Origin: a virus
Strand: one strand, 5' to 3'
Virus record (IMG/VR): IMGVR_UViG_3300031419_000013
Span: 1-64,000 of that record
Length of the DNA stretch: 64,000 nucleotides
Shown here: positions 24,808 through 53,983 of the stretch, one piece after another
Numbering within the stretch: the stretch's first letter is position 1
Layout: every line of letters starts with the position of its first letter
The notes under the pieces: generated by a model
What the model was told of the DNA's origin: nothing
What the model saw: only the letters and a program-made list of their open reading frames with translations
Databases searched by the model: none
Program-made: the position numbers and the translations under genes

Positions 24808-25641
24808 TTACGAAGTTCGTTTCCAAATGTTTGTTACTGCATATGGAGGCATAACATCCAGTGGTGCTTGGTTCTCAATTGCAGTACCTAAACGAAGAAC
24901 ACCTTGCAGTCCGTGAGTATGATTACCAGCAGCATCTGTATAGTTAGTCACTGCTGAACCAGTGCTACCAAATACATCACCATTGGTATCATCAATACTG
25001 ATTCTATAACGTCTCATGGTTAATGAGTGAGTATGGTTTCCAGATGCTGTCATCGAGATACCATTGTTAGAGAAGTCAGAAGTCAGAAGAGGTACGTTTC
25101 CAACAGTAATCTGTTTAGAGAAACTACCACCACGCTCACCAACGGTAAAGGTTCTTGCAGATTGGTTAGGAATAGAGCCAGTAGGCTGTACAACACCAGA
25201 ACCCATCAGCATACCTGTGATTCTAGTCCAAGTACCAAAGCCAAACACATCAGCAGGGTTGACATTACTATCAGTCATCCAGTAACAACCTACCGGGTAC
25301 ATTGCTTTAGTTGCAGTGGTAATCAAATCTTTAACTTGCTGTAGAATAACAAAGTCATTGTTTGATGTACCAGCTACACCATTCTTAATCTTCACGTCTT
25401 GCAAATCAATGATAGGTACATCAGCACCATTCACTGTTTCAGTAGTAAAGGACATATAAGAAGGAATCTGATTGAGTACAGAAAACTCTGTAGTCATTGG
25501 GGTGTTAGATGTAGGAAACGTGTTCTTTAAAACCTGTTTAATAAGTTTTAAGTGGTCGTCACCTTCAGAGATATAATCTCCGGGAAATGGGTATTGTGGA
25601 TTTAGATCATTCACAACTACCGCAGTGGTCTCAATTGCCAT
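24808..25641 (-). CDS. tail-collar-domain fibre protein
   Basis: GNHTH motifs and C-terminal PLDVMPPYAVTNIWKRT typical of phage tail collar domains. Confidence 0.6.
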   Translation of the reverse strand: MAIETTAVVVNDLNPQYPFPGDYISEGDDHLKLIKQVLKNTFPTSNTPMTTEFSVLNQIPSYMSFTTETVNGADVPIIDLQDVKIKNGVAGTSNNDFVILQQVKDLITTATKAMYPVGCYWMTDSNVNPADVFGFGTWTRITGMLMGSGVVQPTGSIPNQSARTFTVGERGGSFSKQITVGNVPLLTSDFSNNGISMTASGNHTHSLTMRRYRISIDDTNGDVFGSTGSAVTNYTDAAGNHTHGLQGVLRLGTAIENQAPLDVMPPYAVTNIWKRTS

Positions 25642-39587: not shown

Positions 39588-41102
39588 TTAATAACTAGAA
39601 TTCCAACGACTGATGTTGTCATTGTAGGCAGCAGTATAACCGTGGTTCGCATCGTTCTTCGAAACTCCACGATGAGTAACAGACATTGCTGAGTACCTCA
39701 TGGCATCCATAGTATCATCGAAGGTTTTAACAATCTTTCCTTCGGTACGATGGTATCTAGCTTTCTCTTCAAAGACTCTGTGACAATGGTTGAATACTTT
39801 AAACCTACCAGTCTTCATTCGTTCACGAATCTCCATAATTCCGGGTTCAACAAAGTTGTTCTTCTTACCATCCATTCCGATTTTGTTGTAGAAGGTTTCA
39901 TGTTTCGCATTAACACCTGCATTGATGTAATATTGAGCCACGGACATACCGCTACCACGCTCCATATTCTGACTATCATGCGGCAGGATGACAGGTATCC
40001 AATTACCTCTCGCGTTAATTGCATGTGCGTGTAAGGCAGGCACTCCACCATCTGCGTGATAAGCGTCATAAATGTAAACAACATCACCATCTGGATCATA
40101 AGCAGACCAAACCACCGCTGTATCATGGGTAATACCAATATCTACACCAGCGACTCTTCTCCAATGATCAGGAATTGGGAAGGATTCACAACGAATCATT
40201 TCATCTGACACATCATAAATCAATCCACTACCCATAACTGGTTCACCTCTTGAACGCATCTGAACCTGCCAGTCTGGAATAGCAGCTAACATATCTTTAA
40301 TATCTTTCTCAGTGATATGCGGAGCATCCCACCAAGTTGCATTCTGCCAATACAAGTCACCTTCTTTGTTGACCATGAACTTATCAACTAACTCTGTACG
40401 TCCATTCTCCGGTGTAGCCGTTAACACCACTAAACCTTTAGTCGTTAGGGTACGTGTAACGCACTGAGAGAAGATGTTCATGCTATCATAAGGGTCTTCT
40501 TCGTCTAGCCAAATGAAATCTACTGTAGCACCCATCAGAGCATGTTCACCCTGTTGAGTTGATCGAAACTCTAACGTACTCATTCCATCAAACTCGCCTC
40601 TAGCGTTGTGATGTTTAATCTGTACAATTAGAATCTTGTTACCGTCTTTCTCTATAGTGTCAAAGTCGATGCAATCTCTTGGGATAGCGCCAGTTCCTAG
40701 TGCTCCCAAATCTTTAGCCACTGATGTACCGAACAATTCTTTTTGCAGAACCTTTCTTGTTGAGTCACCTGTGATACCAACTGCCCAAGCTAGGATTGGT
40801 TTAGGAAACCTATGACCAGTCCACCACGTTGGGTATCTCCCTGTTAAATGACATGCCATCTCGAATGATTCGCTGTATGATTTACCCACACGGTTTGCAG
40901 CGCATAGGAATCTAAAGCGAAAGTCTTTGCTAGCACCATAGAATTGTTTTTGAAAGTCGTAAGCTTTGAAGTAATTAAGTTTGTTATATTTCTTTAAGTC
41001 CTCTTTCTCTTGTAACATTCTTAACAGCTCTGCCTTGCCCTCTTTATCCAGTTTACTCAGAGCCTCTTCAATTGCTTGACTGATTGAAATCTTTTCCGAC
41101 AT
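39588..41102 (-). CDS. terL: terminase large subunit
   Basis: Walker A-like AANRVGKSYS, Walker B-like VDFIWLDEED, nuclease-half pattern; start moved to second ATG with GGAGG RBS. Confidence 0.85.
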   Translation of the reverse strand: MSEKISISQAIEEALSKLDKEGKAELLRMLQEKEDLKKYNKLNYFKAYDFQKQFYGASKDFRFRFLCAANRVGKSYSESFEMACHLTGRYPTWWTGHRFPKPILAWAVGITGDSTRKVLQKELFGTSVAKDLGALGTGAIPRDCIDFDTIEKDGNKILIVQIKHHNARGEFDGMSTLEFRSTQQGEHALMGATVDFIWLDEEDPYDSMNIFSQCVTRTLTTKGLVVLTATPENGRTELVDKFMVNKEGDLYWQNATWWDAPHITEKDIKDMLAAIPDWQVQMRSRGEPVMGSGLIYDVSDEMIRCESFPIPDHWRRVAGVDIGITHDTAVVWSAYDPDGDVVYIYDAYHADGGVPALHAHAINARGNWIPVILPHDSQNMERGSGMSVAQYYINAGVNAKHETFYNKIGMDGKKNNFVEPGIMEIRERMKTGRFKVFNHCHRVFEEKARYHRTEGKIVKTFDDTMDAMRYSAMSVTHRGVSKNDANHGYTAAYNDNISRWNSSY

Positions 41103-41118
41103 ATATCCTCCATCCATT

Positions 41119-41760: not shown

Positions 41761-42366
41761 TTATACGTGAGGAGTTAGGATGCTACCTGAGTACACATCT
41801 TCTTTAGCTAATCCATTAATGCGATGGTAAGCTTCAGGTCCACTTCTCTCAGTGAGGTAGCGTCTAAGAATATTTTCATCCATAGGAATAATATCACCCG
41901 GCTTAGCTTTGTTTGTGTTATTGATGAAGTCTTCATAGCGTGCCTTCTCTTCATCACTAACCTTGTTAATGGGAATCCACACAGGGACTTGCTTACCCTT
42001 AACAGTTTTGATTACACGTTCCCATTCACCTTTCGAATCTAAGTAATCTCTGAATGCACCATCAAACTCTTTATCCTCTGATGTGAATGCAGATTCTTCA
42101 TACATATCTGTTAATGGCATGTCAGGTTCTGTCTCAGGAATATCAGTGCGCTTGCATTCATGGTATTCTTCGAATCCCTCAACATCATGTTCAACACCAA
42201 CTTCAAATCCACCACCTAATGTCAGCTTATCATTCTCCACGTCATAGGCTTCGTTAACTGCACCACCACGTAAGCTATCCACCAGTTCACCAAACTCTTG
42301 TTCAGAGATGTGACCTTCATCAAACAGCTCAGTTAGTAATTTAATTCTCTCAATATAGTTACTCAT
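41761..42366 (-). CDS. hypothetical acidic protein, first gene of the late operon
   Basis: ORF track (201 aa). Confidence 0.55.
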   Translation of the reverse strand: MSNYIERIKLLTELFDEGHISEQEFGELVDSLRGGAVNEAYDVENDKLTLGGGFEVGVEHDVEGFEEYHECKRTDIPETEPDMPLTDMYEESAFTSEDKEFDGAFRDYLDSKGEWERVIKTVKGKQVPVWIPINKVSDEEKARYEDFINNTNKAKPGDIIPMDENILRRYLTERSGPEAYHRINGLAKEDVYSGSILTPHV

Positions 42367-43130
42367 AATATTTTAAATCTCCTAATCGGATATGTGAATG
42401 CAAGATGAATCAATCATCAAGCATGTATATTAAACGTTAACTCTTAACACAAGTCTTTATTCAAGACTATGTATATAAGGTTTTTAATTTCAAAATTTTC
42501 GGATGCGTGATATAGGCCCGCGCGACAAACTGTAAAAGGGGGAGTCCTCATTTGGATTTCTTCTCTCAGAGAATGTCTTTATTGTCAATAGGACTTATCC
42601 TAATCCACCTATCATCCCCACGTATGCATAACTATGTACCCTACCCCCACGTTATTAGTAAGTACCCCTTTAAATGCGCATGTTATCAGAGGATCTAATG
42701 ATGCAGCGTTATACCTCATAAGTTATTGATTAATGTAGTATAAATAATATGGAAAACTACCCGTATTTTGCTTGACAAACATACCGCGATGTGATAGGCG
42801 TACGTTCTAGTCTATATGTTTCAATAGCTTACTATTCCACTGGATAAACATACAGGACACAGCATTAACAGCATAGTTATTCACTTACTTTGCATACTTA
42901 AGTGTTCGCTGAAGAAGATAGGACAAGGCAATGTGTAACAAGGAGTAACTGATTGGGGCAGATTGATTGGGAGTTAGTTGTAATAGGGTTAAGTGTAATA
43001 GAGTTAAGCTGTTGTTTTCTCTACTCTTTTCTCTTCTTTCAGAGAGTCTTTTCTGGTTTTTAATAGAGAGTTACATGCTAGGTTAGTTTTATGTTAAGAA
43101 TGTTAATCAGATGTTATAGGAATCATTGGT

Positions 43131-43190
43131 TTGTAAAGTTATGTCAAGTTTTGTAAAGTTATGTCAAGTTTTGTAAAGTTATGTAAAGAT
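43131..43190 (+). repeat. 20-bp tandem repeat x3 (TTGTAAAGTTATGTCAAGTT)
   Basis: Two perfect copies and one variant copy ending 2 nt before a -35 hexamer. Confidence 0.9.
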
Positions 43191-43192
43191 AC

Positions 43193-43222
43193 TTGACAAA
43201 TACCCCTAAAGTGTGTTATAAT
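43193..43222 (+). promoter_or_regulatory. sigma70 promoter P1 (TTGACA-18-TATAAT, extended TG)
   Basis: TTGACA 43193-43198; TGTTATAAT 43214-43222. Confidence 0.7.
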
Positions 43223-43712
43223 AGATGGTTAATGTGATAGTTGTATCTGCTAATTATATCACTGGTAACTATTACGATTAAAACAATTCACTGAAGAAAT
43301 GATTAACAACCTAATTAATCTAAATTGAATGATTAGTTAATAGAATTATTATTAGTAGAATTATTGTTTATTGAAATCATAACTCTGATAATTATTAACA
43401 AGGTTAACTCTATTACATTGCCTTGCGGGTATGCTGAGTGCCAGTATTCTGGTTAGATTATGAGCGGTTAGATTAAGTTGTTGATTTATAAGGGTTTTTA
43501 GTTTGTAAATCAGCTTGATTATTGGCACTTAGGCATATACGCATGTACGCGGTCTATCTATTGATGTGCTGTTGTTGTGGTACTAGATAGAATAAGTTGT
43601 TATTTATCAATGAGTTGCAGGATTAGTACTGACGAGGGAAGGTTTTTATCAAAATAAATTCCTTTATAAATCAATCACTTACAACTATTTTCAATCTTTT
43701 TAAAGGAATCGC

Positions 43713-43741
43713 TTGTCATCATTATGCGTTTCCTCTAATAT
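43713..43741 (+). promoter_or_regulatory. sigma70 promoter P2 (TTGTCA-17-TAATAT)
   Basis: Hexamers at 43713-43718 and 43736-43741. Confidence 0.6.
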
Positions 43742-43901
43742 CTCTTTCACCGGGACAACAAAGCAACGTTGAACCGGGTAGTAAGAAGGTTTAATAAGCG
43801 GTAAACGTATTACTTCCCCGCGAAGCCCCCGAAAGGGACCGCCAGCGGTTAACTCTAAGAGTTATGGTAATGGAAAGTGACGTGATGCAGTGCTTCTTAC
43901 A

Positions 43902-43914
43902 TGCTCTTTAATAA
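43902..43914 (+). promoter_or_regulatory. boxA-like element A (TGCTCTTTAATAA)
   Basis: 12/13 match to rrn boxA TGCTCTTTAACAA; about 155 nt downstream of P2. Confidence 0.6.
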
Positions 43915-44042
43915 TTAGGCTGTTAAGTTAACCTTTATTAGTAGCGAGTCACAAGCTGGCGAGGTTTGAACGGATTAACGTTTAGTTTGTCGTTGTTTAT
44001 CAGCGACTTAATAAAAAGTTCAAATGAAAGTGAAAATAAAGG

Positions 44043-44070
44043 TAGACATTAAATAACAGTCTGATAATAT
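44043..44070 (+). promoter_or_regulatory. sigma70 promoter P3 (TAGACA-16-TAATAT, extended TG)
   Basis: TAGACA 44043-44048; TGATAATAT 44062-44070. Confidence 0.55.
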
Positions 44071-44149
44071 GAGCACCAGTTAGACGAAACGCCGCGCTGA
44101 ATAAGTTGAGTAAGCCCCGCTGATTAGTCCGACATTGCAGTAAGATATA

Positions 44150-44162
44150 TGCTCTTTAACAA
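44150..44162 (+). promoter_or_regulatory. boxA element B (TGCTCTTTAACAA)
   Basis: 13/13 identity to the E. coli rrn leader boxA consensus; about 75 nt downstream of P3. Confidence 0.7.
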
Positions 44163-44219
44163 TTTGACTTTGATTCTAGTCTGATAAACTAATCAACCTT
44201 GACAGGGGATGTGTTAATC

Positions 44220-44405
44220 ATGGCGAAGAATACTCTTAAGCGTGTTATGTTAGGCTTAGTGCTAATTGATCATGAAACTGGAGCGGTGTTTGATAAAGGC
44301 CCGTATTCTAAGGAATGGCAGTTAGTTAGTCCTAAACGTGCTAAACTGTTGATAGAATGGCAGTCAGGCGAAACGATTGGACATAACGTGGTTTTTAAGG
44401 GGTAA
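44220..44405 (+). CDS. early hypothetical protein (61 aa)
   Basis: ATG 44220 in frame with track ORF 44199..44405; first ORF after the promoter/boxA cassettes. Confidence 0.5.
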   Translation: MAKNTLKRVMLGLVLIDHETGAVFDKGPYSKEWQLVSPKRAKLLIEWQSGETIGHNVVFKG

Positions 44406-44410
44406 TTATC

Positions 44411-44482
44411 ATGCACGATATCATCGTTATTATGACAGTGTGTTTAGTGTGTGGTGGTTATGCTCTGGTTAGCTGGCGCTGA
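44411..44482 (+). CDS. hydrophobic micro-protein (23 aa)
   Basis: AAGGGG RBS; MHDIIVIMTVCLVCGGYALVSWR. Confidence 0.3.
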   Translation: MHDIIVIMTVCLVCGGYALVSWR

Positions 44483-44526
44483 AAGGCGCTGGTTTATCAG
44501 ACTGGAATTGAAGTTGAAAAGATTTG

Positions 44527-44554
44527 TTGACTCTAACAGCGTTTGCTGTAGAAT
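44527..44554 (+). promoter_or_regulatory. sigma70 promoter P4 (TTGACT-16-TAGAAT)
   Basis: Hexamers at 44527-44532 and 44549-44554. Confidence 0.6.
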
Positions 44555-44615
44555 GTGTCACAAGTTAGGCCGGTAAAGCCTGACAACGATAAGGATTGCA
44601 CATAGCGCCTTATCA

Positions 44616-44628
44616 TGTTCTTTAACAA
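44616..44628 (+). promoter_or_regulatory. boxA-like element C (TGTTCTTTAACAA)
   Basis: 12/13 match; preceded by hairpin GATAAGG...CCTTATC; about 55 nt downstream of P4. Confidence 0.6.
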
Positions 44629-44920
44629 TTAGGAATGGTTATCTAACTATCGAAAGCTGGCGCTTATATAGGCTAGTTAGTAGCGGTCTAAGGTGCAGCG
44701 GAAAAGTAAACCTTATGATTGATAGTGAAGTACCGATGAAAAGCTGATTATCTTATCAGGCTGATTTACGCGCCTTGCCTATCCGGTGAAGGAAATGCGA
44801 TTTCAACCGCTAATGATATTATGAAAGGTGAAGTAAGAAGGAAAAGCGAAAATGGTTAGTCGTTATCGTATAGAGTGTAACAACTCGCCACGGTCTACCA
44901 TTCCAGCGGCGCAAGCCGTT

Positions 44921-44933
44921 TCCTGTTTAACAA
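44921..44933 (+). promoter_or_regulatory. boxA-like element D (TCCTGTTTAACAA)
   Basis: 11/13 match; no obvious promoter immediately upstream. Confidence 0.4.
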
Positions 44934-45270
44934 TATGGTTTAGATTCTATCCTCGTTTGAGACTTTCGAGATAGTTTAATCTTACAGAATGAAATGTGAC
45001 TAATTCCCTGCTTTAGTATTAGCAAAGCGAGTTACAAAGTAGAGGTGTAAGAGTTCAAAGCGGCAGTAAAAGTAAGACGCGAGTACGTGATAGGCCGGAA
45101 AGTGTGTGAACTGAAATAGCGGAGAATAAGCGGCGATTGAGATAATGAGGAGCAAATAGAATCACCTTTGTTAAACAGGAGGAAACAAAAATTGATTTAA
45201 AGTAAAGGTTATGTGAGACGGCCTTTAACTCACAATCACCCTGTTATTTCATCGGTAAACAGCGAAGCGG

Positions 45271-45285
45271 TTAACTACTGTGACG
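45271..45285 (+). promoter_or_regulatory. conserved phage motif copy 1 (TTAACTACTGTGACG)
   Basis: Exact core AACTACTGTGACG; in untranslated leader 160 nt upstream of ORF 45446. Confidence 0.6.
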
Positions 45286-45445
45286 CGGTTTATGAGATAA
45301 CAGGGTTTAGTTGATTGTCTTGTCGCCTTAACGTGATAAGCGTTATGTGAGCGAGAGATGATTTACCTGTTGGCAGTGGATTAAGAAACCGCTGCTAATG
45401 GTGAAGCATTTCAAACAACAACTAACCTTGACAGGGTAAAACATC

Positions 45446-45733
45446 ATGGAAAAGAAACAGCTCGTTATATCTATGCGTCAATTGGTAGATAGTGCAATTG
45501 ATAAACTCGACAAAAGCGGTTATAAGCCGGAAGTTGTTTACAAGGAATTTAATGAGCGCAAAAATGCAATCATTACCCTAGTCAATAACACGACTAATCG
45601 CCGTGAACATCTGGCTTTGATGGTTATTTTAAACAAAGTCTATGTAAACCCCACTACCCGTAACAATGCTGAATTGTTGCGCAAAGAATTTATTAAGGTT
45701 AAAGGTAAATTGCCTTATCCTAGTGATCTTTAA
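45446..45733 (+). CDS. early hypothetical protein (95 aa)
   Basis: ORF track; initiation region duplicated from ORF 44220 (AACCTTGACAGGG..ATCATGG). Confidence 0.55.
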   Translation: MEKKQLVISMRQLVDSAIDKLDKSGYKPEVVYKEFNERKNAIITLVNNTTNRREHLALMVILNKVYVNPTTRNNAELLRKEFIKVKGKLPYPSDL

Positions 45734-53909: not shown

Positions 53910-53983
53910 GCAGGCATAGTATAAAGGTATTACCGTTGGTTTCCACCCAACTAATCGGGGTTCGATTCCCCGTGCCTGCTCCA
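53910..53983 (+). tRNA. tRNA-Gly(UCC)
   Basis: Acceptor GCAGGCA/TGCCTGC, GTTGG-TTTCCAC-CCAAC, T-arm CGGGG-TTCGATT-CCCCG, CCA. Confidence 0.85.

Follow-up and report, generated by a model that had tools for sequence, protein, structure and literature searches.

Repeated promoter-boxA units and a structured leader RNA in the early control region of a phiEco32-related phage

The boxA RNA of bacterial ribosomal RNA (rRNA) operons attracts NusB-NusE and serves as the nucleus on which NusA, NusG, and SuhB complete the rrn antitermination complex. According to one proposal, formation of the rRNA leader-trailer helix is helped by tethering through boxA and NusB (PMC10250234). The functional gamma-proteobacterial consensus of the element, GYTCTTTAANA, was derived from rRNA and suhB boxAs together with mutational data (PMC5725501). 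In phage T7, the string GCTCTTTAACA is located at 813-823, 63 nt after the A3 start, and T7 mutants in this "boxA anti-termination element" can do without Gp2, the inhibitor of the host polymerase, according to a passage in PMC3709561 that cites Savalia 2010. For the phiEco32-like phages, a 2022 paper by the group studying them says of the antitermination strategy that it "remains to be defined" (PMC8948821), and the paper on phage SU10 describes three sigma70 promoters in the spacer "like phage phiEco32" with no mention of boxA (PMC4281155). Here, we analyzed a window of 64,000 nt (positions 1-64,000 of the IMG/VR virus record IMGVR_UViG_3300031419_000013), which spans most of a phage genome, with the region 43713-44933 in question, in which three rrn-type boxAs lie behind candidate sigma70 promoters.

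We regard this region as the one that controls early transcription in a phage related to phiEco32. It consists of repeated units, each composed of a promoter, a short leader (often with a hairpin), an rrn-type boxA, and cargo. Judged from the sequence, the three boxAs are probably Nus-loading sites of the rrn/T7 type that work independently of an N-like phage protein, with one site per promoter.

The boxA copies and the promoters ahead of them

A preliminary description of this DNA had listed four copies of the rrn boxA in the region. All four strings are present with the mismatch counts given there, but only copies A, B, and C can be regarded as boxA, while copy D turned out to be the arm of a helix. 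The three boxAs are as follows:

43902-43914, plus strand: boxA A, core GCTCTTTAATA at 43903-43913, perfect match to GYTCTTTAANA
44150-44162, plus strand: boxA B, core GCTCTTTAACA at 44151-44161, 13/13 match to the rrn boxA, core perfect
44616-44628, plus strand: boxA C, core GTTCTTTAACA at 44617-44627, perfect match to GYTCTTTAANA

All three are on the strand of the early genes and fit into 725 nt. Over the whole window, GYTCTTTAANA occurs seven times versus 0.53 expected, a number reached in 0/100 shuffles, a control that the preliminary description had proposed. Extending the consensus by the shared AAT leaves no match in the 64 kb other than copies A, B, and C. Under a first-order Markov model, approximately 0.005 matches are expected per 1.1 kb on one strand, with the probability of at least three matches being about 2e-8 per 1.1-kb stretch and about 2.5e-6 after correction for the 116 such stretches in the window. 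The core matches at 25522, 30978, 37434, and 59676 were rejected as functional boxAs, as they are located inside open reading frames (ORFs) and lack the AAT extension. The plus strand of the window carries all seven core matches, and of the four that lie outside the cluster, three run antisense to late genes. These four are probably chance matches, although four on one strand exceeds expectation.

The close relatives of the window are two IMG/VR contigs, L003 (82 kb) and L004 (88 kb), with terminases 93% identical, which align to the boxA region at 67-80% DNA identity. The four outlying core matches have no counterpart in these contigs where the contigs cover that part. Comparison of the three phages revealed that copy A reads GCTCTTTAATA in the window, GCTCTTTAACA in L003, and GTTCTTTAAAA in L004, copy B reads GCTCTTTAACA, GCTCTTTAAAA, and GTTCTTTAAAA, and copy C reads GTTCTTTAACA, GCTCTTTAACA, and GTTCTTTAACA, respectively. 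All substitutions among these orthologues fall at the Y and N positions of the consensus, in alignments that are 67-74% identical overall, a pattern indicative of purifying selection on the boxA motif relative to its flanks. Within the window, the cassettes share the 13-16-nt motif only, and the flanks of the copies are non-homologous. In the minimum-energy fold of the RNA made so far, the cores of boxA A-C are unpaired, with P(unpaired) of 0.50-0.82.

Four sigma70-type promoter sequences were located on the same strand:

43193-43222, plus strand: P1, perfect sigma70 consensus TTGACA-18-(TG)TATAAT with extended -10 TG
43713-43741, plus strand: P2, sigma70-like TTGTCA-17-TAATAT, 9/12
44043-44070, plus strand: P3, sigma70-like TAGACA-16-(TG)TAATAT, 9/12 plus TG
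44527-44554, plus strand: P4, sigma70-like TTGACT-16-TAGAAT, 10/12, with an A-tract upstream

P2, P3, and P4 stand where the preliminary description had placed them, with the boxA cores 62-161 nt downstream; counted from the last base of the -10 hexamer, the boxA core is 161 nt away for P2 and copy A, 80 nt for P3 and copy B, and 62 nt for P4 and copy C. P3 and P4 are positionally conserved and are stronger in L003 (11/12), where they read TTGACA-16-TAGAAT and TTGACC-16-TATAAT. The position of P2 is not conserved, and L003 and L004 carry another promoter approximately 50 nt ahead of their boxA A. P1 may also feed the boxA cassettes. It is preceded by five 10-bp-phased repeats (43130-43189; TTTGTAAAGT / TATGTCAAGT), which may bind a protein or act as a phased bending or UP-like array. 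No enrichment was seen for a guessed phage-sigma promoter motif, TAATGTGATAG.

Upstream of P2, the string AAATAAATTCCTTTATAAATCAAT (43653-43681) forms one arm of an inverted repeat (43474-43516 / 43639-43681). A near-identical string is located upstream of the first phiEco32 spacer promoter, and the record of Salmonella phage SeKF_80 has an 85%-identical stretch close to its left end, indicating a short element common to otherwise unalignable phages.

Between P4 and boxA C, the leader contains two hairpins directly 5' of the boxA, in the rrn order of hairpin and then boxA:

44564-44584, plus strand: first leader hairpin
44588-44614, plus strand: second leader hairpin, 7 bp

The 7-bp hairpin, which had been noticed in the preliminary description, is real (z = -3.5 for the leader fold), and in L004 and SU7 the orthologous boxA likewise follows an analogous hairpin.

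Copy D (TCCTGTTTAACAA, 44921-44933) has two mismatches and violates GYTCTTTAANA at positions 1 and 4; at two-mismatch stringency, 3.8 matches are expected per window. It pairs with its inverted copy at 45168-45180 and constitutes the outer part of the 5' arm of an interrupted helix of approximately 31 bp, the D helix (44921-44957 with 45144-45180). Comparison of the window with L003/L004 revealed that seven pairs of this helix are changed on both sides, including a U-A to C-G change inside the boxA-like string and five consecutive pairs at the inner end. A D-like string with a corresponding helix also exists in Kuravirus leaders. Copy D was rejected as a boxA or Nus site for its consensus failure, its chance-level match, and its pairing in a covarying long-range helix; being held in a helix that is kept by double-sided changes, it is better regarded as structural RNA.

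Long-range helices and the untranslated leader RNA

The RNA 3' of the boxAs can engage in long-range pairing, and one of the helices encloses two small ORFs:

43914-43936, plus strand: segment directly 3' of boxA A, can pair with 44034-44066 (P3 promoter region)
44163-44191, plus strand: 5' arm of the B helix, beginning 1-2 nt after boxA B in the window, L003, and L004
44491-44519, plus strand: 3' arm of the B helix, ending just upstream of P4
44220-44405, plus strand: 61-aa ORF inside the B helix, conserved in L003 and L004, without family match
44411-44482, plus strand: 23-aa strongly hydrophobic ORF inside the B helix, 24 aa in L004 and also ending SWR there, deleted in L003

The B helix is continuous over 28-29 bp and shows compensatory changes between the phages. 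Its duplex energies are -39 (window), -45 (L003), and -41 (L004) kcal/mol versus -18 to -20 +/- 3 for shuffled arms. It was found by duplex folding, and RNAalifold on a truncated L004 segment did not show it. Four nucleotides after boxA C, a further helix is formed by GGAATGGT (44632-44639) and ACCATTCC (44897-44904), 258 nt downstream, with a compensatory substitution in L003 and a compensatory one-base insertion in L004. For the segment behind boxA A, the pairing energy of -25 to -28 in the three phages versus -17 +/- 3 for shuffled sequences gives modest support. Direct reading of SU7 indicated a similar layout, in which a boxA is followed by a 22-bp helix around the 66-aa gp104 and then by the next promoter; the 61-aa ORF of the window has no detectable homology to gp104.

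The string AACCTTGACAGGG occurs at 44196-44208 and again at 45427-45439, 12-17 nt upstream of the starts at 44220 and 45446, and both places are occupied by CTTAGCAGGG in L003 and L004. The repeat looks like a shared translation-initiation context of the first genes after each non-coding stretch.

The leader from 44555 to 45445 (approximately 890 nt) contains no conserved ORF and folds into three helix-closed domains:

44632-44904, plus strand: leader domain 1, closed by the GGAATGGT/ACCATTCC helix
44920-45182, plus strand: leader domain 2, closed by the D helix of approximately 31 bp
45183-45445, plus strand: leader domain 3, with a 22-bp helix (45355-45378 with 45390-45412), ending at the ribosome-binding region of the first long gene

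The preliminary description had recognized about 800 nt of untranslated leader here (44640-45445); the lack of a conserved ORF agrees with it, but the conserved structured RNA and the helices abutting boxA had been missed. RNAalifold predicted 190 pairs in the leader, and in 61 of these both partners are changed. In a set of 72 selected pairs, pairing holds in 97.7% of the cells and 18 pairs are changed on both sides, compared with 7.0 +/- 2.0 in shuffles (0/500 reach 18) and 1-4 in slid controls; these figures come from three sequences, the whole of the close clade, which limits the power of covariation, and most of the helices were taken from the same alignment. Rfam was searched with the whole window (gathering threshold) and with 43000-45600 (E <= 10), and only tRNAs and one chance snoRNA were returned, with no rRNA.

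A counterpart leader of approximately 830 nt is found in Kuravirus (L012, minus strand, about 2620-1790), where it is more than 90% conserved in four Kuravirus-type genomes and predicted to be highly structured. A search by nhmmer with the leader alignment detected no sequence homology to the Kuravirus leaders, and the leaders of the two clades therefore correspond by synteny and architecture only. The phiEco32 spacer that holds this counterpart is present in 97 GenBank phage records and is almost always unannotated. Novelty lies more in the conserved structured leader RNA than in the boxAs, and it is the leader RNA that most deserves follow-up.

Genomic setting and recurrence in other phages

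The window has the following overall organization:

11098-42366, minus strand: late/structural gene cluster
39588-41117: large terminase, approximately 68% identical to terminases of phiEco32-type coliphages (Gordonclarkvirinae)
42366-45446: spacer of approximately 3 kb, almost without ORFs
44220 onward, plus strand: early gene cluster
45446-45733, plus strand: first long gene after the leader, 95 aa
45815-46714, plus strand: 299-aa gene after the leader, homologous to SU7 gp105 / phiEco32 gp124
50509-53983: eight tRNA genes in a 3.5-kb stretch inside the early cluster

The homology of the 299-aa protein to gp124/gp105 (E = 7e-11) indicates that the spacers of the window and of these phages are syntenic. 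At the DNA level, megablast and blastn of the region against GenBank phages found no homologue besides one 65-nt stretch. Neither phages nor IMG/VR gave a tblastn match to the 299-aa protein, and the exact 20-mer around copy B is absent from IMG/VR. A metagenome scan with a conserved 23-mer recovered only L003 and L004 again.

Two genes downstream of the structured leader encode proteins of recognizable families. The first (47656-48009), about 2 kb downstream, encodes a ProQ/FinO-domain RNA-binding protein (PF04352, E = 4e-13), a possible partner of the leader RNA; directly after it, 48009-48269 encodes a DksA/TraR-type zinc-finger protein (phrog_54, E = 7e-18), a possible partner in rRNA-promoter control. 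The first of the eight tRNA genes (50509-50586) was reported by ARAGORN as "tRNA-???" with the anticodon "ga" and scores 48.5 bits against the Rfam tRNA family; its anticodon loop may be unusual.

Perfect boxAs recur in phiEco32-type phages, with 25 copies in seven genomes: three each in the window, L003, and L004, four plus a D-like motif in SU7, four in phiEco32, five in L006, and three in L010, the last two being Gordonclarkvirinae contigs. All 25 are on the early-gene strand in an ORF-free spacer, most of them 15-165 nt after promoters scoring 9-12/12, and those of SU7, phiEco32, L006, and L010 lie in the spacer upstream of the gp124/gp105 gene.

To a large extent, scanning IMG/VR with the 14-mer GCTCTTTAACAATT gave single chance matches, and the scan became informative only after filtering for same-strand clusters. 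Same-strand clusters of 2-4 perfect boxAs behind sigma70-like promoters were found in SP6-like phages and in several unclassified IMG/VR contigs. The SP6-like phage UAB_Phi78 has three promoter-boxA units, at 671, 1056, and 1739, and helices of 24-29 bp begin 3-4 nt after its boxAs. The loci with boxA clusters are as follows:

L031: UAB_Phi78
L018, L019, L071, L087, L122: boxA clusters
L098, L116, L100, L115, L062: further boxA clusters

In L098, a GAAA-loop hairpin stands ahead of two of the three boxAs. Our literature search found no paper describing the SP6-like boxA cassettes. It also found none with both "phiEco32" and "boxA", in a body of literature that lacked the primary phiEco32 papers (Savalia 2008, Pavlova 2012), either of which might mention boxA.

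Proposed mechanism and comparison with known systems

In the proposed mechanism, the host sigma70 RNA polymerase would start at P2, P3, P4, and probably P1, and the nascent RNA would expose a single-stranded GYUCUUUAANAAU within approximately 60-160 nt. NusB-NusE(S10) would then bind boxA and, with NusA, NusG, and SuhB, convert the polymerase into a fast, termination-resistant, rrn-type form without a phage N protein, a conversion that takes place on rrn operons and on the early transcript of T7. The modified polymerase would cross the leader of approximately 890 nt and the long early operon, including the 3.5-kb tRNA stretch. A boxA acts only on polymerases that initiated ahead of it, and here the promoters are separated by cargo and distributed over about 1 kb; each promoter would therefore need its own copy, which would explain the reiteration. 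The RNA 3' of boxA B, and more weakly that of A and C, would act as the 5' arm of a long-range helix whose closure is promoted by boxA-NusB tethering, and the closed helices could provide RNase III-type processing sites, as in T7 and pre-rRNA.

Antitermination of early transcripts by the host machinery without an N-like protein had been put forward in the preliminary description, and it is the best-supported reading, as suggested by the consensus matches, their strand and position, their unpaired state, their conservation and recurrence, and the T7 precedent. The interpretation is less novel than had been claimed: an rrn-type boxA in a phage early region has a precedent in T7, as given in the passage of PMC3709561, and reiterated cassettes occur in SP6-like phages. 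Scanning of 19 early proteins against Pfam, and of nine of them also against PHROGs, found no antiterminator family; as N-like proteins are small and poorly conserved, this absence is weak evidence.

Several points weigh against this reading. For this phage, everything downstream of the sequence is our inference. Direct reading of the sequence revealed no GU-rich, UGUGUGGG-like boxC behind any of the boxAs. The region contains 13 promoter-like sites versus a shuffled expectation of 12.7, so the promoter scan alone proves little, and P2 and P3 score only 9/12. A strong helix abuts boxA only in cassette B, and the corresponding helices are weak in phiEco32. In phage 7-11, a more distant relative, the early leader contains no boxA at up to one mismatch, so a phage of this genome architecture can do without the device. 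Protection of the leader from Rho, as proposed in the preliminary description, is plausible; however, the leader of the window is C-poor (16.6% C versus 24.4% G) and extensively folded, which makes it an intrinsically poor Rho substrate, and Rho may not be the main threat to its transcription. Moreover, the examples of suhB and hisG show that a boxA may also repress translation or promote termination by Rho (PMC5725501, PMC12360218).

The alternative that survives best is that the boxAs are mainly RNA-folding and processing devices, in which the tethered 5' arm closes the helices and RNase III frees small mRNAs and structured non-coding RNAs, with termination resistance being secondary. It overlaps with the antitermination mechanism and could account for the 28-29-bp helix arm that follows boxA B at 1-2 nt in all three phages, the helix with compensatory changes 4 nt after boxA C, the same layout in the SP6-like cassettes, and the poor Rho substrate presented by the leader; a chaperone or tethering role has in addition been proposed for the rrn antitermination complex (PMC10250234). 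However, the weakness of the boxA-abutting helices in phiEco32 speaks against it, and the T7 genetics summarized in the passage of PMC3709561 point to read-through and interference rather than folding. We consider it unlikely that folding and processing are the main role.

A decoy function, in which boxA-bearing phage RNAs sequester NusB, NusE, and SuhB and thereby lower host rRNA synthesis and contribute to host shut-off, had also been raised in the preliminary description. It gained nothing in support beyond copy number (3-5 copies per genome behind strong promoters); the nearby gene for a DksA/TraR-type protein, a class acting on rRNA promoters, is circumstantial only. A decoy would require neither one boxA per promoter ahead of cargo nor long operons behind, and T7, with its single copy, shows cis antitermination genetics in the account of PMC3709561, making titration highly improbable. 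Repression of the suhB type, in which Nus factors at boxA block translation of small ORFs, trigger Rho termination, and throttle early expression, would fit the ability of a boxA in a 5' untranslated region (UTR) to repress (PMC5725501, PMC12360218) and the location of boxA B 59 nt before the start at 44220. This distance exceeds the limit of <=50 nt that defines the suhB-type class, copies A and C are hundreds of nucleotides from any conserved ORF, leaving only copy B near a start codon, and A, C, and most phiEco32 and SU7 copies precede non-coding RNA; this mode of action appears equally improbable. Least probable is that the motifs are not RNA signals but products of chance in an AT-rich sequence, remnants of a duplicated cassette, or sites of DNA binding: although the intergenic region is AT-rich and repeat-rich and four further core matches look like chance, such an origin is disfavoured by the clustering probability (about 2e-8 per stretch, about 2.5e-6 corrected), the sharing of the 13-16-nt motif without its flanks, the placement of all 25 copies in seven genomes on one strand, the confinement of substitutions to degenerate positions, and the lack of boxA in 7-11, whose similar AT-rich leaders indicate that such leaders do not yield the motif by default.

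Beyond antitermination as such, the spacer might tentatively be viewed as a phage "pseudo-rrn operon" with tandem strong promoters, hairpin plus boxA, and leader-trailer helices, in which the host rRNA antitermination/chaperone complex transcribes, folds, and releases, via RNase III, abundant structured non-coding RNAs with their own function in host take-over. The leader RNA (approximately 890 nt, and approximately 830 nt in Kuravirus) could then serve, for example, as a ProQ/FinO partner or as a decoy for a host factor. Under such an arrangement, boxA would possibly be the means and the leader RNA the point. With this work, a large, conserved, structured, and unannotated RNA is flagged whose spacer occurs in 97 phage records, several of them therapy candidates. 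The boxAs behind the early spacer promoters also provide a concrete hypothesis for the antitermination that had been left "to be defined" (PMC8948821), one that is testable in phiEco32 and does not extend to 7-11.

At the lambdoid nut sites, boxA RNA brings NusB-NusE to the host polymerase on early phage transcripts, and the boxAs of the window would do the same. The nut boxA is shorter and weaker and is followed by the N-binding boxB hairpin, with N being required, whereas the window has boxAs of the full rrn type with hairpins on the 5' side and the arm of a long-range helix on the 3' side. Identity with a lambda nut site was rejected on account of the hairpin on the wrong side, the full rrn-type boxA, and the lack of an N family match in the early proteins scanned. 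The suhB 5' UTR likewise uses GYTCTTTAANA outside rRNA, but that element represses. Leader boxAs of Salmonella CRISPR arrays share this consensus and reportedly protect long untranslated RNA from Rho (Stringer et al. 2020). The suhB and CRISPR elements are single-copy and chromosomal, in contrast to reiterated promoter-boxA cassettes in a virus.

The E. coli rrn operons resemble the locus in their strong tandem promoters with upstream A-tracts, the tRNA genes downstream, the hairpin followed by a single-stranded boxA (cassette C), the 13/13 match of copy B, and the 5' strand of a long-range helix just after boxA that encloses structured untranslated RNA (the B, C, and D helices). The differences are that the window cassettes have no recognizable boxC, so the boxB-boxA-boxC order is absent, that the enclosed RNAs are not rRNA and have no Rfam match, that one enclosed segment encodes small proteins, and that the window copies are reiterated within approximately 0.7 kb.

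T7 shares with this phage a virulent lifestyle and host sigma70 early promoters, with the rrn-type GCTCTTTAACA approximately 60-70 nt downstream and before the first early gene (0.3); in the window, too, the boxAs appear to be placed after the early promoters for the host polymerase and ahead of the first early genes. T7 uses no N protein, and RNase III-type structures follow its boxA. The two phages belong to unrelated families, with a phage RNA polymerase in T7 and a phage sigma factor here. T7 has one boxA for three clustered promoters (A1-A3), whereas here there is one copy per dispersed promoter, giving three per genome in the clade of the window and 3-5 in Gordonclarkvirinae versus one in T7. 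A conserved structured leader of approximately 890 nt is carried as cargo in the window, and its helices are long-range while the T7 hairpins are local. The SP6-like phage UAB_Phi78 comes close to the window layout, with three promoter-boxA units at the early genome end and long-range helices 3-4 nt after boxA, but belongs to an unrelated family (Autographiviridae) and has no long structured leader. The principle of an N-independent boxA is known and probably widespread. Its occurrence in phiEco32-type phages, in reiterated form and linked to a large structured leader, appears to be undescribed in the literature searched. Taken together with T7 and the SP6-like cassettes, the locus points to N-independent capture of the host rRNA antitermination complex as a strategy that recurs among virulent coliphages relying on the host polymerase at the start of infection.

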